A program made the position numbers and the translations under genes. Below are positions 51,324 through 61,138 of a stretch of 64,000 nucleotides of DNA, piece by piece. The stretch's first letter is position 1. Each line of letters opens with the position of its first letter. The notes beneath the pieces are model-generated. The model was not told the DNA's origin. It did no database searches and saw nothing but the letters and a program-made list of their open reading frames with translations. This DNA is from Minisyncoccota bacterium (GTDB taxonomy: Bacteria; Patescibacteriota; Minisyncoccia; Phycocordibacterales; UBA9973), in assembly GCA_028718635.1 (NCBI GenBank), contig JAQULK010000001.1:479755-543754 (forward strand). The letters are read 5' to 3'.

Positions 51324-51356
51324 ATTTTAATATTAACACAAAACACTTTTCACTTT

Positions 51357-51593
51357 TTAGGTATTTTTGTTTTGAGGTTTAAGTAAAGACGTGCTTATAA
51401 CAACAACAATTGTAGTGATAATAATTGCGTAGAGAAATTTGACCAAAAGACCAGAGTTGTCTAAAGGGAAAAAGAAAGCAATAAGAGCTTTAATCGCGTC
51501 ACTCCAAGCAAGCCCAGCCACCAAGGAAAGCGCAGCTACGATATACCCCGAAGTCTGATTCCTGATTTGTGTTTTAAGTTCATCCTTTAGCAT
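51357..51593 (-). CDS. small membrane protein
   Basis: 78-aa, two TM helices; no homology recognised. Confidence 0.3.
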   Translation of the reverse strand: MLKDELKTQIRNQTSGYIVAALSLVAGLAWSDAIKALIAFFFPLDNSGLLVKFLYAIIITTIVVVISTSLLKPQNKNT

Positions 51594-51657: not shown

Positions 51658-52869
51658 TTAATTATTTTTTATTTTTCTTGGTTCTAATAGCAATACCAAC
51701 TCTTCTGATTTGACTCTCGACTTTTTTGTAAGCTTATTTTTATTTAACTTATTATTACCACCCAAAGTACTAAATTTTCCTGTAATTGCATGTGTATGAA
51801 TGCGACTGTTTTTTTTATCTAAATTAAAATATTTTTTAGCAGATTCAAGTACTTGGTCCCCTGATAAACCATTACTGCATTTACCTTTAGGAAAAGTAAA
51901 AATAACCTTCACTTCTCTTTTTGATAAACCTGAAAGAAGTTCATCTAATGCTTTGAGTGATTGTCCTGCATTACTAAATTTGGACTGTGGACGTTCAGAA
52001 ATATCTGGATATCTTCCAACACCAGTTACCGGCCCACATTTTCCCCGGGCAATAGTTTCAAGTACATGATAGAAACGACTATACTGTACTCCGGAGTATG
52101 GTGGGTCGAGAAGAACTAAGTCACCCTTTTTTAATTTAGATATAAGTTTTTTTGCATCAGATATCACTGCTTTTCCCTTAACTAAAGAATGAAGAGGGGT
52201 GATTTCCTCCAAAGCTTTTTCACAAGATTTAAACACATCTATGTGCCAAGCAATTTTAATAAATTTTCCAGCACCAGTTGTCGGTTGAAAAGGTTGAGCA
52301 GTATGTCCAGGAGCAGCAGCAGCTCTTGAAGCAGCAATAATTATTGCAGCCAAGCAAACATTTCTGTATTTAGTTTTTTTTGGTAACGTCTTTAGAAGAT
52401 AATCAAGAATTAATGCTTGTTTGGGGCTGAAATAGTGACCGCCATAAGCATTCCAAATTGGACCTATTTTTGGAAGGGTTTCGCAAAGTTTTCTAGCTTT
52501 ATTTACTCTAATTTTAATACTTTTCTTGTAATTTTTATCAATCTCTTCTGCCTGATTTAAAAGTTTTGAATCTTTTATTTCTTTTTTAGTCTTTTCTATC
52601 CAAATCTCTTTTAAATATTCAGGATTAAGAATATTAGTCCGCTCTATAACTGCTTTTGAAAGAACAACTGCATATTTTTGTAGATCACCTGCAATAATTT
52701 CTCCTTTAAAATTTTGATTTGTGGCAACAAAGTTAACTACGCCTCCAGAACCACAAAATGGGTCTATGAATCTTTTTGCACTGGGAAGTTGCTCTCGAAG
52801 TAATTCTCCAAGACCATTCGCCAACATATATCTTTTTGATCCCATGTATTTCATATGCCAAGTCCCCAA
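51658..52869 (-). CDS. Dam-like (D12 class) N6-adenine DNA methyltransferase
   Basis: N-terminal KYMGSKRYML (motif X), FIDPFCGSGGV (motif I, FxGxG), LVLLDPPY (motif IV, DPPY); start overlaps stop of upstream gene. Confidence 0.8.
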   Translation of the reverse strand: MGTWHMKYMGSKRYMLANGLGELLREQLPSAKRFIDPFCGSGGVVNFVATNQNFKGEIIAGDLQKYAVVLSKAVIERTNILNPEYLKEIWIEKTKKEIKDSKLLNQAEEIDKNYKKSIKIRVNKARKLCETLPKIGPIWNAYGGHYFSPKQALILDYLLKTLPKKTKYRNVCLAAIIIAASRAAAAPGHTAQPFQPTTGAGKFIKIAWHIDVFKSCEKALEEITPLHSLVKGKAVISDAKKLISKLKKGDLVLLDPPYSGVQYSRFYHVLETIARGKCGPVTGVGRYPDISERPQSKFSNAGQSLKALDELLSGLSKREVKVIFTFPKGKCSNGLSGDQVLESAKKYFNLDKKNSRIHTHAITGKFSTLGGNNKLNKNKLTKKSRVKSEELVLLLEPRKIKNN

Positions 52870-54227
52870 AGGGATATTCTTTCACACTCACTTAAACTAA
52901 ACATTTGTTGAGAAATACCCCTTATTAAATCATTATAAGAATAAGTTGTTCCCTGTGCATTCTCCCACGTTTTTATATCTTGAAGTGCTGCATCAATATC
53001 GGTCCAAAGGTCAAGAAAGTCAGCAATAGTTGTACCGTCTTTGATTAGTCCATAATCAGTTGCATATGGTTGCCACCAAAATTCTAGATCTGCTTTTGTA
53101 AAACCAGCCTCTCGAATCAGGCTTCCATTTATGCCGGTCGAAATTCTCAATAGAAGAGTGGCTCTCGCTAAAACCTGTAAATGGTGATTTGGGTGATCAG
53201 TAGAAGTAACCTTAGAAGCTTCTTCGATAATTCTCGATTCATTGGGTTGCGTCTGCCATGTAAGAAAATCTACCCAACCATTTTGTATCGGTAGGGCAAA
53301 GCCGAGAGCCGGAATATGTTTCATAACCCAAGCTCGATAATTCGCCAAGTGAGTAGGTAAACGAGGGTCTACACCATGAACAGCTCGGTATGACTGCGCC
53401 AAGCCTATTCTTAAAAGGTGTTTGTCAATCTCATCAAATCTGGATGAGGGATTTGGTTCGCACATACGCCATAATTCATTCAAAAAAGAAAGCGAGTCTG
53501 GTGCAGGAGCATTGGTTTTAGGAAGAATTCTAGATGGTCTATAACTAGAATGGTTTCGTAGTATTTGGTCATCACCAAATTGTTTTATATCTATTCCCCA
53601 AGATTTTAACCAAGAACGACCAATAGGATGGAGATTTACATTGAAGGCACCTAACCAAACAGAAAGAGCTATTGACCCAGGCGTAATAATTTCGGAAAGT
53701 GTTTCTGCAGATGGTTTTCTATCAGCCCAATGCTCAAGAGCTTCCCATGTAAATTTATGTGTTCCCTTTTGACTAGATGTCGTGACCGACCTTCTTGTTG
53801 TATTTGTTACAATTACATGTGTTCTATTAAATACCCCAACCCCGATGGATCCAAGAATGGACATTGCAGCACGCAACTCAGCATAGTAAGCAAGATGAAC
53901 AGAGCTACTTGAATCTCCTTTTATATGAAGATTGAGTGCTCTACCCAGTAGACTCCAACCATCACTACAGTGATTAAAAATTGAGGCAGCTATATAATTT
54001 TCAATCTGCCTCTGATATAAGGATCTTCCTCGAGCAATTACCTCTGTAGGATTTCCTCTATTTGCTGGATTTCTTTGGTAAGATTTGGAATATCTATTTT
54101 GTGGATTAATCCATCGCCTAACAGAGATGTGAGAACGAAGATTTTTTACCCCCTCCTTAATCGCATCAGGAGAAGCATTTCTTAACTGTTTTTTTAGTGA
54201 GTTTGCTGGCATGAATTTTTTTATCAA
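52851..54227 (-). CDS. 458-aa protein of unknown function, middle gene of DGQHR-MTase operon
   Basis: No recognisable motif by eye; overlaps both neighbours by 4-19 bp (translational coupling). Confidence 0.5.
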   Translation of the reverse strand: MIKKFMPANSLKKQLRNASPDAIKEGVKNLRSHISVRRWINPQNRYSKSYQRNPANRGNPTEVIARGRSLYQRQIENYIAASIFNHCSDGWSLLGRALNLHIKGDSSSSVHLAYYAELRAAMSILGSIGVGVFNRTHVIVTNTTRRSVTTSSQKGTHKFTWEALEHWADRKPSAETLSEIITPGSIALSVWLGAFNVNLHPIGRSWLKSWGIDIKQFGDDQILRNHSSYRPSRILPKTNAPAPDSLSFLNELWRMCEPNPSSRFDEIDKHLLRIGLAQSYRAVHGVDPRLPTHLANYRAWVMKHIPALGFALPIQNGWVDFLTWQTQPNESRIIEEASKVTSTDHPNHHLQVLARATLLLRISTGINGSLIREAGFTKADLEFWWQPYATDYGLIKDGTTIADFLDLWTDIDAALQDIKTWENAQGTTYSYNDLIRGISQQMFSLSECERISLWGLGI

Positions 54228-55750
54228 ACAACATCTCCATCAAATCCGAGGTTTTTATAAATTGCTTTAGCATCTTTTCCTAATTTATTATCTTTAGATA
54301 AATGTTTAAGTAGCAAGCGTCTAAATTCTCTGTAACCACTACCACCTCTAAATGAAAGTTTGAGCGTTCTCTCTATTTCAGAGAGATTTTCAGCAGCCGA
54401 TGATCTCCAATCAAATGTTGAAAGTGCAATTGTAAGCTGGTCTATAAACACAGTAATCTGTTGTTGTTTCTTTAATAAATTATCAAGAGCTTCTGATACA
54501 GTCACTTCTGGATTCAGTTTCCATTTCTTCAAATTTAATTTATCCGTATTTCTGAATAGTATATCGTTGGTAATATTTAAAACGACAGAAATGCCTTGAT
54601 CATTATTCAGGAGTGTATGTGGTCCATAAAAAGCAGGATCTTTCTTGATCTTCCGCTTATAGTCAGTTTCTCTTAGTTTTTTTGCCCAATCAACTTTAAG
54701 TTCTTTAATAGATTTTTCTAGTGAGTTCCAAAGGTAAATTAAGAGAGCCGCTTGCTGGCTGCGATTCCAAGGAATCGTCATTTCATCATGCCCTGCTGGT
54801 GCTCCAAATAAACCCCCAATTGTTACTCCCTTACCTTCTGATGTTTTAATATATGTTTTTAATAAAGCTCTTATCCAAGCGGCTTGGGTAACAGAACTAT
54901 CTCCACTTTCACCAAGCATATTTATACGCTGATACCAAGAACTTGTTGGCTCAGACCAAAGTAATTCAACTATTTCTTGTGCTCTCGCTTCTCGGTATAC
55001 TTTGTGGCCCTCGAATCGATCTAACCAATCCTCAGTACGCAAAAGAGGATAAAGATCAAAAGCAAGACTTGGATTGATCCTCTTTGGCTTAATGTTTATT
55101 GTCCAGAATAAATAAGCCTGCCAGCTTAGATCTAAACCATAAAAAGCAACTACCGGTAACTCGTAATCCTCGTTAATATTTTCATCAAAGGCCAATAATC
55201 TATGTTGGCCATCAATTACTTCCAATGGATGAACTTGTTCTGGTTTCCATTTTTTTGTTTCTTTAGAAAAAGGAAGTTTTATTTCAGTGATGACAGCATT
55301 CTGGTCTATTGTTATTAAATCCTTAAATGCTACGAACCCCCCATTTCGTTTATCTTCTTTTGTTAAAATATTCACAACAATTGCTGTAGGTAGCCACCCT
55401 GGTTTACGAAGATCATCAAACCTACCATCTTGTCGTTGAGATTTTGTTAAATCTGACCATGGGTAACCATACTTAACATACTCCGCAATATTTTTTGAAC
55501 GAGATTGTTCGTAGGCACGTTGGATCCCCATGTCGCCAGACCTTTTTTTGCCATCTTTTGCATCTCTGCGATTTACACCAGACAAAAAACGCAGCTGGCG
55601 AGCAGACAATGAAAATATATAGAAACACTTTTCTGGTTCTCTTCGATGATTCTTTTTAATAAACTCAACTGATCCCCATTCTTTTAACCATTGATTTACC
55701 TTTAAGGCATTAATGGTTACATTTTTATTTGACTTAGATTTATTTTTCAT
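54224..55750 (-). CDS. DGQHR-domain protein (DndB-like, ParB/Srx-fold superfamily)
   Basis: Contains VIDGQHRLLAF (DGQHR signature) and upstream GIQRAYEQ box, typical of TIGR03187/DndB-like family. Confidence 0.65.
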   Translation of the reverse strand: MKNKSKSNKNVTINALKVNQWLKEWGSVEFIKKNHRREPEKCFYIFSLSARQLRFLSGVNRRDAKDGKKRSGDMGIQRAYEQSRSKNIAEYVKYGYPWSDLTKSQRQDGRFDDLRKPGWLPTAIVVNILTKEDKRNGGFVAFKDLITIDQNAVITEIKLPFSKETKKWKPEQVHPLEVIDGQHRLLAFDENINEDYELPVVAFYGLDLSWQAYLFWTINIKPKRINPSLAFDLYPLLRTEDWLDRFEGHKVYREARAQEIVELLWSEPTSSWYQRINMLGESGDSSVTQAAWIRALLKTYIKTSEGKGVTIGGLFGAPAGHDEMTIPWNRSQQAALLIYLWNSLEKSIKELKVDWAKKLRETDYKRKIKKDPAFYGPHTLLNNDQGISVVLNITNDILFRNTDKLNLKKWKLNPEVTVSEALDNLLKKQQQITVFIDQLTIALSTFDWRSSAAENLSEIERTLKLSFRGGSGYREFRRLLLKHLSKDNKLGKDAKAIYKNLGFDGDVV

Positions 55751-56156
55751 ATTTAAAATAATGCTTAAATTAGTACTTACTATTGTACCAAATTAGGATC
55801 CACAAAGCACGCAATTTAAGGTATGAAATAGTTAGTAATCCACCTTTATATATTTATCTTTTGACGCCGTTAACGCTAAAATAGTTTTTGCCCACGGGCT
55901 CACAAAATCAGAATCCAAGGATTCGATAAGTGAGTTCGTTTTGCGTTTAAGAGCAAAATATTTTAGATGATTATTAATTAATTTTGTTTAAAAAAACATA
56001 TGAATAAAATAAAAAGTTTGGTTTGGCACACAGAGAAGCGTATCGTATCTCAGTAGGTATGCTATGACGAATAGTTCTTGAGTAAGTTTCAACGCATCTC
56101 GTGCGGGATAACTGCGCTCAAACTGGCTGGGTGTCTGGTGCGAAGTTGGAACATTT

Positions 56157-56864
56157 TTAACGTTTGAATAAAGTTTTAATATTCTTTTCAAGATAGTATA
56201 TCCAAGAAAATAAAGTACAATCCAAGAAAATACCTGTAATTGTTAGGCATGTAATCCCAAAAAATACATATGGTAAATAACCATATTCTGTGGCACTGTT
56301 ATAAGCCCATTTTCCACTAACAACTATAAAGATTATGAGTGCAAGTACATTTAGAAGAGCGTCAGAGTGAATATTCTTACTTGTACTTTCTACTGCTTCC
56401 TCTTCCCATTCATGACTATAAGTACCATTACTCTCACTTTTTGTAATACTAGTTTTAAAGTAATCCTTATTTATAGGAAGAAAGTCGTAATGCCATTTAC
56501 GTCTGCTTTTATAGCCATGATTATCGTATTTCCATATCACCCTATCCATGAGTATGCTTAAAGGAGCAATTAATATAATTAATCCACATATCATATAAAG
56601 CCACCTGTATTCTGGAAGAAACGGTAAATAACTATTTAAACCATCAAGGCCATGGAGCAAAACTACGAGCAGAGAAAGAGTAAGAAATGTGCGATTCACT
56701 TTTGATGCATGTTCTTGAGGTTTAAAGTATATGTAACGACCAAGGGCTTTGTATACGACATACATTAAAACATAAACTATTGCCACATGAAATATCGTTA
56801 ATTCGTGAAGTAAAAGATTTTTTAGTTCATCAAAAGAAGATAGAAATAAAGATTCATTTAACAT
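56157..56864 (-). CDS. hypothetical polytopic membrane protein
   Basis: 235 aa, ~5 hydrophobic helices. Confidence 0.4.
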   Translation of the reverse strand: MLNESLFLSSFDELKNLLLHELTIFHVAIVYVLMYVVYKALGRYIYFKPQEHASKVNRTFLTLSLLVVLLHGLDGLNSYLPFLPEYRWLYMICGLIILIAPLSILMDRVIWKYDNHGYKSRRKWHYDFLPINKDYFKTSITKSESNGTYSHEWEEEAVESTSKNIHSDALLNVLALIIFIVVSGKWAYNSATEYGYLPYVFFGITCLTITGIFLDCTLFSWIYYLEKNIKTLFKR

Positions 56865-56882
56865 AATATTTTTAAGTTAAGA

Positions 56883-57599
56883 TTATTTTTTCTTACTACC
56901 AAATACTATATATAAAAAGATTTTATAGTAGAAAATAATAATCCCTGCAAAGAGCAAAAAGGAAAATACCAAAACGACAGGAATCATTTCTAGAAAGTAC
57001 ATTATAGTTTTACCAACAGATTTTTCATAAAAGAACCAGTTATCTTGGTACGATTTATCGGGTTGCAAAAAAGTAACCTTTGTATTATTAAAAGATGTGT
57101 AAGCATCAACAATTAAACATTTTATATCATTTTGTTTTATGTAATTTGAAAATGCTTCCGATGAGATTTTATTTCTGTAATTATTCTCCATTATAAATAA
57201 TTCATACAATATATCCGTATTTTTATTATCCTTAATTTTTTCATAATTATTGGCAAGTTCAGTAGAACAATAAACGTTATTTAAAGTACCCATATAATAA
57301 TCGTCTGGAGGACTATTTAATACATAAGTTCTATTACTGTCTCCTATCTTTTCCCCCATCTTAATAAGTGCACTTATTGGTTTAATCTCAGAAGTTATTC
57401 TTTCAGATATAGTTGCAACTTTTTTCCATTCTTGAACTCCAATATCACCCTTAAACAGATTAGAATTACTATAAACTATTAAATTATAAATAAAAAATAG
57501 AATAAAGGAAAAAATAAAAATAATTGATAGAAGTCTATGCCACCATTTATTTTTAAGATTCAAATCTTCTCTAGATAACCAATTTAATATTTTTTTCAT
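56883..57599 (-). CDS. hypothetical membrane-anchored protein
   Basis: 238 aa, N-terminal and C-terminal hydrophobic helices flanking soluble domain. Confidence 0.4.
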   Translation of the reverse strand: MKKILNWLSREDLNLKNKWWHRLLSIIFIFSFILFFIYNLIVYSNSNLFKGDIGVQEWKKVATISERITSEIKPISALIKMGEKIGDSNRTYVLNSPPDDYYMGTLNNVYCSTELANNYEKIKDNKNTDILYELFIMENNYRNKISSEAFSNYIKQNDIKCLIVDAYTSFNNTKVTFLQPDKSYQDNWFFYEKSVGKTIMYFLEMIPVVLVFSFLLFAGIIIFYYKIFLYIVFGSKKK

Positions 57600-57602
57600 A
57601 AA

Positions 57603-57977
57603 TTATTTTTTTAATACTCTTTTAAAAATCTCAGGGTCTCTTTTTGCTGAACTTAAAATAACATCAAAATTAAAACGACCATACCCAAATGTTTCCTCTT
57701 CATAATCTTCATCCTCTTTGTCTTTTTCTTGGTCAAAATAATTAACAAAGTCTAATATGGCATTTATTAAAGTACCCATTATCATAATCGGTTTTTCAAG
57801 TTTCTTTGCATTATCAGAACCAGAAGTTTCATCACTTTTAATAAAAACAGCCATCATGTCTGCTTTCTGATAAATCTGTTTCCATAAGTACTCAACAATA
57901 GTTTTCCAATGGAAGGTATTACGATTAACCCACCAAATAATAACCCCTACGACAACTATTATTAGTAAATATCCCAT
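57603..57977 (-). CDS. hypothetical protein with N-terminal TM and acidic tail
   Basis: 124 aa; EDEDYEEE acidic stretch. Confidence 0.35.
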   Translation of the reverse strand: MGYLLIIVVVGVIIWWVNRNTFHWKTIVEYLWKQIYQKADMMAVFIKSDETSGSDNAKKLEKPIMIMGTLINAILDFVNYFDQEKDKEDEDYEEETFGYGRFNFDVILSSAKRDPEIFKRVLKK

Positions 57978-58552
57978 ATGATTTTAATCATACAACTCTC
58001 GCTAAAAAAATCAATGGTTGTTTGACATTCCTTTTTTAAAGGCATATACTAATAGCGAGTACGGAACTGCACCTTGATTTATAAAGCACGCAAAAAATAA
58101 AAAAATAACAACACTCTCGCCTAAAAAAATTAAACCCTTTGTGGCTAGCATAAAATATATAAAAAATTAAAACACAGCTAGAAATATAAAATAAAAAAAA
58201 ATAAAGAGAGCCTAAATAATAAAAAAAATTAATTAGTGCCAAACAAAACAGGAACCAAAATTTGGGTTCTTTTTTCGTTTATTTCAAGCTGTTTTTCTGT
58301 ACCCGAAAAAAGGGTATGGAATTAAAATATAGCCAAATTCTAATAACTCGTACTATAAACCACTTTAAGAAAAAGTATGGTTTAGACATTTCTGCCGAAA
58401 CAGCAGATGTCTATTTGGCTTCGTTCGCGGTGGTGTTCCGTTCGTTCGTCCGCCCGTCCTCTGTGGACGGCGGACGAACGGATACACCCGATGATTATTA
58501 ACACTCGTTCTGCGGGTGGTAGTAACACCCGCAGAACATTGCAGATTGCAAT
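57978..58552. other. AT-rich non-coding region with direct repeats (ctcgc(c)taaaaaaat) and two GC-rich hairpins (58438-58483, 58509-58537): candidate replication origin / regulatory region of the integrated element
   Basis: 575 bp without credible ORF; poly-A tracts; hairpins ccgttcgttcgtccgcc...ggcggacgaacgg and ttctgcgggtg gtagtaa cacccgcagaa immediately upstream of Rep-like gene. Confidence 0.3.
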
Positions 58553-59608
58553 ATGATAGACACGATTAAATTTTTAATACCAATTGATAACAGTGAGGTT
58601 TTTGAGAGTATTAAAAATCAGCTTACTCGTACTCGTAGAGAAAATATGAAAACGAATGAATTAAAATTTGAATATTTTACAGAAGAAATTGAAGTAGGAA
58701 GTTATGAACGAACTGTAAGAATTTATCTGAAACAAGATAGCCCGAAAGGTGTATTCGTAGAATTTTCTTTGCCTAAACAATATTATGATAATAATGTAGA
58801 AATGATACACGCTTATGATATTGAATATGTTTTAGATAATTTTAAAAATGATGTTTGCCAATTTTTCCAAGAACGTATTCCTCCAATAGAACAATGGATT
58901 ATTTATCGTCTTGATGTTTGCTATAACTGGACTTTTGAATCAGAACAAAAATGCCAGTCCATTATGAATTTTATTCAGCGTATAGATTTCCCTAAAAAGA
59001 AAAAATATGTCTATGATACTTCTGTAATGTATAAAGGGTCTGCCTATACAATTAAATTCTATTTAAAGGGTGCAGAATTTAAGAGGCATGACTATAAAGA
59101 CATTTTTAAAAAAGATATGGATAAAGCTGATTTACTTCTTAATTGGGCAGAAAAAGTTTTACGATTTGAGGTTGAATTTAAGAAAGGATATTTAAGTAAT
59201 TTATTTCCTCATGGAAAAGTTTTAGTTTCTAGTATTGTTTACGATAAAATTATTGAGGACATATTAAAAAAATATCTTACTTTGGTTTTTCGCTACGTTA
59301 ATAAAGAAAATATGAAATATGAAAATGTTAGGCAGTTAATAGATAAAAGTTTCAAGCCAGCTAAAGCATTACGCTTGTATCAATTTTATAAGGGCTACTT
59401 TTACGAGCAAGATGAAAAGTTTCATATTAAAAAAGGACTTAACCCGTCTACGATTTGGCGATATAAAAACGATTTAAAAAATATTGGTGTTTCATTTGAG
59501 GAAAATTTAGGTGATTCCAGTTTCGTAGCGGTTGAGGAATTGATTGTACCCTCTGGAAAAGGAAAGTTTGATTTGCTTGATTATAAGCTAACTAGTGATT
59601 ATAGTTAA
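58553..59608 (+). CDS. putative rolling-circle replication initiator (Rep_trans-like)
   Basis: Blocks RLDVCYNW, YVYDTSVMYKGSAYTIKFYLKGAE, VLRFEVEFKKGYL resemble Rep_trans (PF02486) motifs including the catalytic Y-x-K region; sits next to serine recombinase. Confidence 0.4.
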   Translation: MIDTIKFLIPIDNSEVFESIKNQLTRTRRENMKTNELKFEYFTEEIEVGSYERTVRIYLKQDSPKGVFVEFSLPKQYYDNNVEMIHAYDIEYVLDNFKNDVCQFFQERIPPIEQWIIYRLDVCYNWTFESEQKCQSIMNFIQRIDFPKKKKYVYDTSVMYKGSAYTIKFYLKGAEFKRHDYKDIFKKDMDKADLLLNWAEKVLRFEVEFKKGYLSNLFPHGKVLVSSIVYDKIIEDILKKYLTLVFRYVNKENMKYENVRQLIDKSFKPAKALRLYQFYKGYFYEQDEKFHIKKGLNPSTIWRYKNDLKNIGVSFEENLGDSSFVAVEELIVPSGKGKFDLLDYKLTSDYS

Positions 59609-59612
59609 ATTT

Positions 59613-61079
59613 ATGAAATACGTTATCTATTGCAGAAAATCAACCGATACCGAGGACAGACAAGTCCAATCCCTAGAATCCCAAGAAAACGAGCTTAAAA
59701 GGCTCGCAGAGGCTCAAGGACTGCATGTTGTTGCTATCTTACATGAAAGTATGTCCGCCAAGTCAGAGGGTCGCCCTGTATTCAATAAAGTGTTAGAAAT
59801 GTTTATTAAAGGAAAAGTTGACGGTATTATTTGTTGGAAACTAGACCGCCTAGCTAGAAACTTTATTGACGGTGGACGAATTATTGATTTACTGCAAAAA
59901 TCTGTTATCAAAGAAATTCGCACTCCTGAAAGTATTTATTTACCCAATGATAATGTGTTAATGATTTCTATGCAGTTTGGAATGGCTAACCAATACAGCC
60001 GTGATTTGAGTATGAATGTTAAGCGTGGTCTTCGTACTAAACTTGAAAAGGGCGAATGGTTAAATAAGGCACCACTCGGATACTTGAATGATAAAATTGC
60101 ACACAAAATTATTATTGACCCAGTACGCAGTAAATATATTATCCGTGCTTTTGAACTTTTTACGACTGGAAAATACGGACACAAAGATATTTCTAATATT
60201 CTTTTTTCCGAGGGATTTAGAAGTAGTGGTAATTTACAAGTGCCAAAGTCGGCAATCCAAACGATTCTTTTAAATCCTTTTTATTGTGGTTTAATGAAAA
60301 CAGGCGGAAAAATTTATAACGGAAACCATACACCCATTATTTCTAAAGCTATTTATGATAAAGCCCAAGAGGTAATGCAAGAACGCCTACACCCAAGAAA
60401 GAAAACTTTACTATTTCCTGTTAGAGGTTTGATTAAATGTAGCGAGTGCGGTTGTATGTATACCGCTAGTAGAAAAAAAGGTCATGATTATTACTACTGC
60501 ACTAATGGCAAAGGCATTTGTACTTCTGATAAAAAATATTTGAGAGAAAATGATTTGTATAAAAAATTACTTCCTATTCTTGAAAAAGTTGCGTGGGATA
60601 AAGAAGAAATTGAGTTGTTATACCTTGCATCAAAAGAGGACATTAAATACGAAACTGGATACTTAAATAAAACTCTAGAAAATCTTAAACAAGAGGCAGT
60701 CGTTATTTTAGAACGCCAAGGCAAACTTCTTAATTTATATTTAGATGGCTCTATGTCTAAAGAATTATACGAGGAAAAAAATATCGCTATTGAAAATCAA
60801 AGAGTGTTATTAGCCAAGCAAATTTCTGAAATTGAGGACAAAACCCAAAAGGCAGTTTCTGCTTTGGAACCGACTAAAAAATTGTTTTTAGATTGTGTTG
60901 TATGGGCGAAAGAGTTTTTAACACTTCCACCAGAGAAAAAACAAAATATTGTCCACGAGATACTTTGGAACCTTAACATGAAAGAGAAAAATATCGTTGA
61001 TTACCAACTTAAAAGTCCGTATTCTGCTATCGCAAATTTACCTCAAAATGCTAATTTCCACGCAAGGCTGGGAGACTAG
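59613..61079 (+). CDS. large serine recombinase (integrase)
   Basis: Resolvase N-domain YCRKSTD...SLESQ...DRLARN, recombinase domain, zinc ribbon CSECGCMYTA...YYYCTNGKGIC, C-terminal coiled coil; last 4 codons overlap tRNA-Gln 3' end. Confidence 0.85.
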   Translation: MKYVIYCRKSTDTEDRQVQSLESQENELKRLAEAQGLHVVAILHESMSAKSEGRPVFNKVLEMFIKGKVDGIICWKLDRLARNFIDGGRIIDLLQKSVIKEIRTPESIYLPNDNVLMISMQFGMANQYSRDLSMNVKRGLRTKLEKGEWLNKAPLGYLNDKIAHKIIIDPVRSKYIIRAFELFTTGKYGHKDISNILFSEGFRSSGNLQVPKSAIQTILLNPFYCGLMKTGGKIYNGNHTPIISKAIYDKAQEVMQERLHPRKKTLLFPVRGLIKCSECGCMYTASRKKGHDYYYCTNGKGICTSDKKYLRENDLYKKLLPILEKVAWDKEEIELLYLASKEDIKYETGYLNKTLENLKQEAVVILERQGKLLNLYLDGSMSKELYEEKNIAIENQRVLLAKQISEIEDKTQKAVSALEPTKKLFLDCVVWAKEFLTLPPEKKQNIVHEILWNLNMKEKNIVDYQLKSPYSAIANLPQNANFHARLGD

Positions 61080-61138
61080 GAATCGGACCTAGATTAAAGG
61101 CTTCAAAGGCCTCTGTCCTACCGTTAGACGATCTCCCA
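61068..61138 (-). tRNA. tRNA-Gln (anticodon UUG)
   Basis: Hand-folded: acceptor TGGGAGA/TCTCCCA, D stem GTCT/GGAC, anticodon stem GAGGC/GCCTT loop CTTTGAA, T arm CTAGG TCCGATT CCTAG. Confidence 0.6.

Follow-up and report, generated by a model that had tools for sequence, protein, structure and literature searches.

What is the function of three overlapping genes in the genome of a Minisyncoccota bacterium, which encode a DGQHR-motif protein, a protein found in none of the annotation libraries tested and an adenine-specific DNA methylase? The locus lies on contig JAQULK010000001.1 (assembly GCA_028718635.1), within a stretch of 64,000 nucleotides that was analyzed as a whole and is referred to here as the window. 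An earlier note on this DNA had proposed a restriction-modification (R-M)-like or modification-dependent system, with the DGQHR protein (gene A), the middle protein (gene B) or both as effector. The conserved coupling of the genes and the defense islands in which their homologs reside support this proposal, and on balance we lean towards the view that the triad is an R-M-like immune system with an abortive-infection flavor, in which the methylase (gene C) would mark self and A-B would form the restriction or abortive module. Should the system act in defense, it is still without a name, even though it spans many bacterial phyla, bacteria of the candidate phyla radiation (CPR) and methanogens.

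All three genes lie on the minus strand (Table 1), and our reading of the open reading frames (ORFs) gives the same coordinates as the earlier note. The overlaps of a few base pairs described there amount to 4 nt at each junction: the TGA stop of A shares the letters TTGA with the TTG start of B, and the TGA stop of B shares ATGA with the ATG of the methylase gene. An ATG located 15 nt inside the TTG start of B underlies the shorter NCBI model of this protein. The maximal ORF of gene C extends from 51658 to 52869 (403 aa), and the ATG at 52854 gives a protein that begins with MKYMGSKR. Among the ten flanking ORFs scanned, no dnd genes, restriction-endonuclease domain or helicase were found, in agreement with the earlier description of the surroundings.

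The B family is rare, patchily spread and unannotated, and does not resemble the common housekeeping family that had been raised as a possible objection. A word-indexed search returned 778 matches, and when 1.84 billion representatives were searched exhaustively with a profile, 1,230 clusters emerged, nearly all of them about 450 aa long and with no fusions apparent. When each species was represented by a single genome, relatives were located in at least 166 species, and the hosts include Patescibacteria, Chloroflexota, Acidobacteriota, Planctomycetota, Verrucomicrobiota, Actinomycetota, Cyanobacteria, Alpha-, Gamma- and Deltaproteobacteria and the archaeon Methanoregula, with further copies on plasmids. 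Phage genomes hardly contribute to this distribution, with no copy in INPHARED and copies on 3 of the 2.9 million viral contigs of IMG/VR.

Across this range the genes stay together. Wherever a locus has enough upstream sequence, from CPR bacteria to Methanoregula, B is immediately preceded by an ortholog of A, at 45-78% identity to the window copy for A and 31-61% for B. Over about 85 loci, the gaps between A and B are mostly -4 to +5 nt and those between B and C mostly -4 or -19 nt. A modification gene was sought within 4 kb of A-B in 85 non-redundant loci, four of which lie on contigs too short to be assessed; in 79 of the remaining 81 such a gene is present, usually abutting the pair. The concern that the three genes might not be conserved together in other genomes is thereby answered, with one amendment to the idea of a three-component unit: the linkage of A, B and a modification gene is conserved, but the obligatory unit is A and B, and the methylase is a replaceable partner, drawn from five methylase families or exchanged for DndC/DndD.

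The partner is most often a methylase of the type found in the window, here termed D12-long, which follows B in 54 of the 85 loci. A D12-short methylase, the only Dam/DpnM-like type among the triad partners, is present in 17, MT-A70 in two, a PF01555 methylase upstream of A in one, and an N6_Mtase fused to HSDR_N_2 in another. DndC/DndD genes take this place in four loci (L025, L034 and L037, plus L079 with a DndD-like gene), and in two (L010 and L047) no modification gene was recognized. Relative to A-B the partner may be oriented downstream, upstream or convergently. On a neighbor-joining tree of B the partners other than D12-long are scattered, and the partner has therefore been exchanged repeatedly. 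Two of the loci with DndC-like and DndD-like genes are cyanobacterial (L025 and L037, one of them on a Pseudanabaena plasmid) and have no methylase; the third, from an uncultured bacterium (L034), carries the same two genes instead of a methylase. L025 additionally encodes an AAA_16 ATPase and a possible DndE of 143 aa. These three loci are an A-B-containing variant of the dnd cluster. In L038, the D12-long methylase downstream of B is seemingly split into two ORFs, after an inserted ORF of 457 aa, and this locus may represent a decayed copy.

Defense genes do cluster, and the variable partner could be taken to mean that the association itself is accidental, with A-B working alone, as a toxin or abortive-infection pair, beside a methylase that is an unrelated orphan or the remnant of another R-M system. 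At L006 the methylase is convergent and is followed by an unannotated ORF of 211 aa that could be its own endonuclease, and the two loci without any modification gene fit the same picture. We nevertheless regard chance neighborhood as very improbable, since the modification gene recurs within 4 kb in loci from distant phyla, most modification genes overlap the stop codon of B, no cognate endonuclease is conserved beside these methylases, and members of the D12-long clade sampled in further contexts stand next to a DGQHR/DndB protein each time.

In the mechanism that we favor, C would mark host DNA with N6-methyladenine (m6A) at a specific motif. A would serve as a component that binds or hydrolyzes nucleoside triphosphates (NTPs), loads onto DNA, scans it and reports whether it carries the mark, while B, in complex with A, would be the effector, possibly a HEPN-like nuclease. 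Together, A and B would represent a portable 'restriction cassette' that has repeatedly exchanged its modification partner; this repeated exchange argues that A-B itself probably has no fixed sequence specificity when it reads the modification status. Natural combinations of A-B with exchanged methylases or phosphorothioation genes hence amount to a natural experiment on how modification may be read without a shared specificity subunit.

The assignment of A as a DGQHR protein is well founded. It contains the DGQHR signature (VIDGQHRLLAF) and the GIQR box that had been recognized earlier, and is composed of an N-terminal domain of the ParB/sulfiredoxin (Srx) fold (residues ~10-300) and a C-terminal helical domain (~330-506). 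The DGQHR motif is predicted to be the NTP- or phosphate-binding motif of this fold, and a DndB-like protein has been found to bind both ATP and GTP (preprint 10.1101/2025.10.10.680097). The motif region aligns with DndB and DGQHR models, on which the earlier proposal also depended: A scores 79.2 bits against TIGR03187 (DGQHR; curated cut-off 58.85) and 32 bits against Pfam DndB (cut-off 29.1), the latter alignment covering only profile positions 13-159 of 338. The scores against more specific models fall well below their cut-offs, with 59.8 of 450 bits for TIGR04172 (DGQHR protein 1) and 26.6 of 300 bits for the DpdB equivalog NF041060, and the DpdB match in PADLOC is weak (1.9e-7). GmrSD_N of Pfam does not match A, and a profile of A gave nothing useful against PDB sequences. 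By these matches, A is best described as a paralog within the DndB family and not as belonging to the Dnd or Dpd systems.

Membership in the DndB/DGQHR family also suggests a role in regulation. DndB is an ATP-modulated repressor that limits phosphorothioation (PMC4507180; PMC10853773), and DpdB is an ATPase partner of DpdA that is needed for DpdA-mediated insertion (PMC12839542). A-B may by analogy be a regulatory or cofactor module of a DNA-modifying enzyme, either holding down the extent of modification as DndB does or assisting the enzyme at the DNA as a DpdB-like ATPase, within an epigenetic module that lacks restriction. In L025, L034 and L037, A occupies a dndB-like place ahead of dndC and dndD, and the D12-long clade is tied to DndB-family proteins even where B is missing. 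Two large proteins, one of them with about 40 invariant, catalytic-looking residues, appear excessive for a repressor, though, and it is hard to see what selective advantage two dedicated regulators would bring to an orphan methylase. Furthermore, the association persists where the methylase is convergent or upstream and thus outside the transcription unit of A (L006, L031, L044 and L058), the partner methylases stem from unrelated families, which makes a shared protein-protein cofactor role unlikely, and defense islands and a patchy horizontal distribution fit immunity better. A purely regulatory role is therefore unlikely in our judgment. How ParB/DGQHR proteins such as DndB and DpdB act is still debated, and the A-B core bears on this question.

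Protein C was previously assigned to the D12-class N6-adenine methyltransferases, and its score of 56.3 bits against Pfam MethyltransfD12 (PF02086; cut-off 22), its motif I and its DPPY motif uphold this assignment. It displays MGSKR, D-P-F-C-G-S-G and DPPY. In 54 orthologs, motif I (D36-x-F38-x-G40) and D255-P-P-Y258 each show a conservation of 95% or more. A long target-recognition insert separates motifs I and IV. In PADLOC, C matches models of Type II methylases (MTase_II, 3.7e-20), the score against the Dam equivalog TIGR00571 stays at 33.1 bits with a cut-off of 114.85, and a sequence search of the PDB detected no relative of C. Judged by their conserved residues, A, B and C all look catalytically competent.

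Protein B, in which the earlier note had recognized no motif, indeed has no match in Pfam, NCBIfam, PADLOC, PHROGs or PDB sequences, but it is not without a discernible fold. A confident structure model (predicted local distance difference test 90, predicted template modeling score 0.91) is almost entirely alpha-helical, with what appears to be a HEPN-like four-helix bundle at about residues 72-255, into which a beta-hairpin is inserted, followed by a second helical domain at about residues 265-456. For the hairpin-helix insert, with H137 and T156-H157, a possible ββα-Me (His-Me finger) identity was also considered. A Foldseek search of the PDB with this model gave no E-value better than 0.47, and Pfam HEPN models, including HEPN_MAE_28990, matched none of 60 B members at E-values of up to 10.

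About 40 residues of B are at least 95% conserved in 86 sequences, among them H86, H111, Y114, Y115, E117, R119, H137, T156, H157, D213, D220, R224, N225, S228, Y229, W253, R273 and R355. R224, S228 and Y229 are present in all 86 sequences and N225 in 85. The Rx4-6H catalytic motif of HEPN proteins, which is situated where helix 3 ends and accompanied by a conserved acidic residue in helix 2 (PMC3710099), is not found at that position in B; in its stead, R-N-x2-S-Y, in which a Tyr replaces the His, is a candidate for the active site. AF0298-type HEPN proteins keep the Arg but miss the motif His, and an alternative His is provided by an insert between helices 2 and 3 (PMC3710099). In the model of B, E117 in helix 2, H157 in the insert and R224-N-x2-S-Y229 at a helix end and the following loop appear to fit this description, and the invariant H157 could correspond to the alternative His. 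The proposed active site, D-x3-R-N-x2-S-Y / T-H / E, would be unusual for a HEPN-like nuclease, and this variant would represent new chemistry if it is active. An assignment of B as a canonical HEPN RNase via the Rx4H-like R96-x4-H101 was discarded on the grounds that H101 occurs in only 25 of 86 sequences. A relationship of B to the C-terminal domain of A, which also contains R-x4-Y, was likewise rejected, as hhalign found nothing.

A culturable host is offered by Zymomonas mobilis CP4, whose 30,952-bp plasmid p30.9 encodes a DGQHR protein, a hypothetical protein and a Dam-family methylase; a B homolog is also present on pRt932 of Rhizobium tumorigenes. The Zymomonas copy of B matches no PADLOC model, like the window copy. 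The methylase of p30.9 is DpnM-like (2dpm, E 2.5e-54), and no other Dam-family gene was found among the Zymomonas plasmids of PLSDB. In the methylome of strain CP3, which belongs to the CP4 group, RGATCY carries m6A at 98.6% genome-wide, in addition to one type I motif and GANTC, and the plasmids of the CP4 group are more than 99.97% identical (PMC8088579). The methylome of strain ZM4 contains only CAGN4CTG, GAAGN7TCC and GANTC and no GATC-type motif (PMC8432527). These methylomes would fit a triad methylase that marks self constitutively. True ZM4 provides a near-isogenic, triad-negative comparison. Conjugation into the CP4 group is 100-200 times harder than into ZM4, which many factors could cause.

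The database record NC_013788.1 is labeled as plasmid pZZM405 of Z. mobilis ZM4, and it has the same size and content as the 30,952-bp plasmid of CP4 and NRRL B-12526. The pZZM40x records do not represent ZM4 (Yang et al., 2018; PMC5930841), and the mislabeling can mislead genotype-phenotype inference. The ZM4 methylome had been considered as evidence against self-methylation and was dropped as such, NC_013788.1 being a CP4-group plasmid and pZM32 of true ZM4 lacking the triad. NC_013788.1 and NZ_CP023716.1 share a backbone of a TonB receptor, PI-PLC, a variable slot and a macro-domain protein. The slot of the CP4-group plasmid holds the DGQHR-B-Dam genes and DarT; true ZM4 pZM32 has the same plasmid backbone with a PIN-HTH pair in the triad slot and SIR2/TIR genes elsewhere. 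The slot is a natural variable defense slot.

Methylation of nearly all RGATCY sites also bears on an inverted or inducible logic, akin to Pgl-like 'reverse R-M' or Type IV systems, in which a restrained methylase would mark invading or replicating phage DNA. A-B would then attack modified DNA, or a HEPN-like RNase would cause suicide when a phage protein perturbs the methylase or A, as in the case of PrrC. HEPN proteins in R-M operons have been proposed to be latent suicide RNases that are freed when the R-M complex is inhibited (PMC3710099). The tolerance of many partners would be easier to understand if A-B guarded the modification enzyme instead of reading a motif, and the activity of ParB-fold DUF262 enzymes, GmrSD among them, depends on modification. 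The genome-wide methylation of a GATC-type motif in the triad-positive CP4 group fits constitutive self-marking instead, a nuclease that depends on modification would harm its own host if it were produced together with an active methylase from overlapping genes, and no sensor or trigger was identified. Overall, we consider the inverted logic quite unlikely.

Several points weigh against an R-M-like immune system. A defense function is what we infer for every member of the family alike, and DndB, the relative of A studied by experiment, is a regulator and not a nuclease (PMC4507180). It would be mechanistically demanding for one A-B pair to read both m6A, deposited by methylases of differing specificity, and phosphorothioate, and two loci show no recognizable modification gene within 4 kb of the pair. 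RNase activity of B is not assured because a Tyr stands where Rx4-6H canonically has its His, and the fit of its putative active site was drawn from secondary structure and not from a three-dimensional clustering of residues. The Zymomonas link is a correlation between two strains that considers plasmids only and leaves room for a chromosomal Dam-like gene; moreover, the triad is placed in CP3 through the identity of CP4-group plasmids and not through the CP3 assembly.

The outline of a ParB protein, a HEPN protein and a methylase in one operon is foreseen computationally, and its logic resembles that of known modification-linked systems; a description of the triad itself was not found in the literature searched. 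Operons that combine a HEPN protein of the MAE_28990 family, a ParB nuclease and a DNA methylase share the three-part architecture, insofar as B is HEPN-like, and were predicted to be R-M-linked defense systems with a back-up RNase (Anantharaman et al., 2013; PMC3710099). Compared by its description and its Pfam model, the MAE_28990 family differs from B, which has about 450 aa, an additional C-terminal domain and R-N-x2-S-Y instead of Rx4-6H. A has the DGQHR ParB/Srx domain in common with DndB and TIGR04172 proteins, and dndC and dndD follow A-B in three or four loci. However, the C-terminal domain of A differs, the window lacks dndACDE and with them the adjacent dndC/dndD/dndE genes of a Dnd system, and canonical dnd operons contain no B-like gene. 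DpdB, a ParB-like ATPase, resembles A in its DGQHR domain and in having a DNA-modifying enzyme as partner; in the triad, this partner is a methylase, DpdA/TGT, DpdC and DpdD-K are missing, and no TGT-like gene was found in the window flanks or the sampled loci.

Type II R-M systems with Dam/DpnM-class methylases, e.g. DpnII, resemble the triad in that C and the D12-short partners are also D12-class and that a replaceable methylase adjoins 'restriction' genes. In contrast, the triad contains no PD-(D/E)xK, HNH, GIY-YIG or PLD endonuclease, and restriction would fall to a ParB/HEPN-like module of two proteins, which tolerates several methylase families and even phosphorothioation. In SspE and GmrSD, a DUF262/ParB-fold NTPase coupled to a nuclease senses modification. 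These proteins and BrxU, with a ParB/Srx-fold NTPase that carries DGQ[QH]R and a modification-responsive nuclease, follow a similar logic, and SspE works with swappable phosphorothioate-modification genes, comparable to the swapped partners of A-B. They fuse both functions in one chain with a DUF1524/HNH nuclease, whereas the window system has two separate genes and a putative HEPN-like nuclease. In PADLOC-DB v2, no system has all triad components matched: B matches no model, A only weakly that for DpdB, and C generic methylase models. The swappable partner is an unusual property, and the active-site variant proposed for B is possibly new.

A related arrangement is found in a sister triad composed of a DndB-family protein of about 455 aa, an unannotated protein of about 285 aa and a D12-long methylase (L094, L095 and L098-L171). 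It shares with the window triad the gene order and the methylase clade: of four further clade members sampled, which are 50-66% identical to C, all adjoin a DndB-family protein, three with a different middle protein of about 260-290 aa and one with no middle protein. A metagenome scan yielded 74 loci. Among those whose contig extends far enough, the DndB-family gene lies upstream in 43 of 50 and the D12-long gene downstream in 42 of 48. The DGQHR protein of the sister triad aligns with A only around the motif (BLASTP E 5e-7). In the ~285-aa protein, YY...R, E-H-x2-Y-W and D-x3-R-x4-Y are conserved and follow one another as they do in B, and the two proteins agree in order and spacing of YY...R, [TE]-H-x2-3-W and D-x3-R-x4-Y. 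Homology of the two middle proteins was nonetheless rejected as a conclusion, as hmmsearch and hhalign were not significant (E 0.21-0.36), even though hhalign picks the same motif region (E 0.21).

Taken further, the swapping of partners could mean that A-B is a universal, sequence-independent reader of modification, joined to a HEPN-derived nuclease with Tyr for His, and the founder of a larger superfamily of DGQHR, 'RxxxxY' and methylase systems that would include the ~285-aa sister family. A ParB-like, NTP-gated clamp would load onto DNA, slide and be stopped or released by any dense self-mark, be it m6A or phosphorothioate; on unmarked DNA the clamp would license the nuclease of B (D-x3-R-N-x2-S-Y), resulting in a plug-and-play cassette for any modification enzyme. 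We hold this extended scheme to be doubtful, if conceivable.

Table 1. Positions of the triad, its motifs and neighboring features in the window, and of features in homologous loci (given as locus:positions).
Feature	Position	Strand	Remark
Gene A	54224..55750	-	508 aa, DGQHR/ParB-Srx protein
DGQHR motif of A	55199..55213	-	translates to DGQHR; invariant across orthologs
Gene B	52851..54227	-	458 aa from TTG start; 453 aa from ATG at 54212
R224-N-H-S-S-Y229 of B	53541..53558	-	translates to RNHSSY; R-N-x2-S-Y motif
Gene C	51658..52854	-	398 aa from ATG; D12-class (alpha-type) N6-adenine DNA methyltransferase
DPPY catalytic motif IV of C	52096..52107	-	translates to DPPY; in 55/56 orthologs
Intergenic region upstream of A	55751..56156	-	406 bp, sole sizeable non-coding gap beside operon
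Three small membrane ORFs	56157-57977		no family match; adjoin operon
Phage_CRI rolling-circle replication protein	58553-59608		
Large serine recombinase	59595-61079		3' end overlaps tRNA-Gln
tRNA-Gln	61066-61138	-	
A-B with DndC-like and DndD-like genes	L025:8388-14122; L037:8897-12564; L034:8350-12954		
Split D12-long methylase	L038:8634-11127		
Sister triad	L094:2773-6149; L095:2775-6140		
DUF4357/PDC-S14 genes	L008:9582-10460; L077:9515-10390; L004:5609-6466; L094:1912-2763		

The intergenic region upstream of A is presumed to be the promoter or regulatory region of the operon. A scan for consensus promoters and terminators gave fewer matches than shuffled sequence and is hence uninformative.

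The operon is plausibly cargo carried at the margin of an integrated element. Adjacent to it, the block at 56157-61138 resembles such an element, with a GC content down to 29%. The earlier placement of the operon inside a probable integrated element is made plausible by the replication protein, serine recombinase and tRNA-Gln nearby; no att direct repeats were found.

The homologous loci are situated in typical defense islands. Their neighbors include type I R-M systems (L006 and L096), HEPN_AbiU2 with a trypsin-like protease (L004), HipA (L001), DarT/DarG (on the Zymomonas plasmid), GmrSD-HNH (the P0408 locus) and a PLD-helicase with Schlafen (L079). A DUF4357 protein, which corresponds to the PADLOC candidate PDC-S14 (E 4e-82), is absent from the window and flanks the triad both in the nearest CPR relatives of the window and in certain distant loci. 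The DUF4357 protein displays a GIY-YIG-like 'VYVGES' motif, a reading of its sequence and not a match to a hidden Markov model. In the window, a small ORF on the minus strand at 51340-51590, between the methylase gene and a gene for a LysE-type transporter, encodes a predicted membrane protein (MLKDELKTQIRNQ...).

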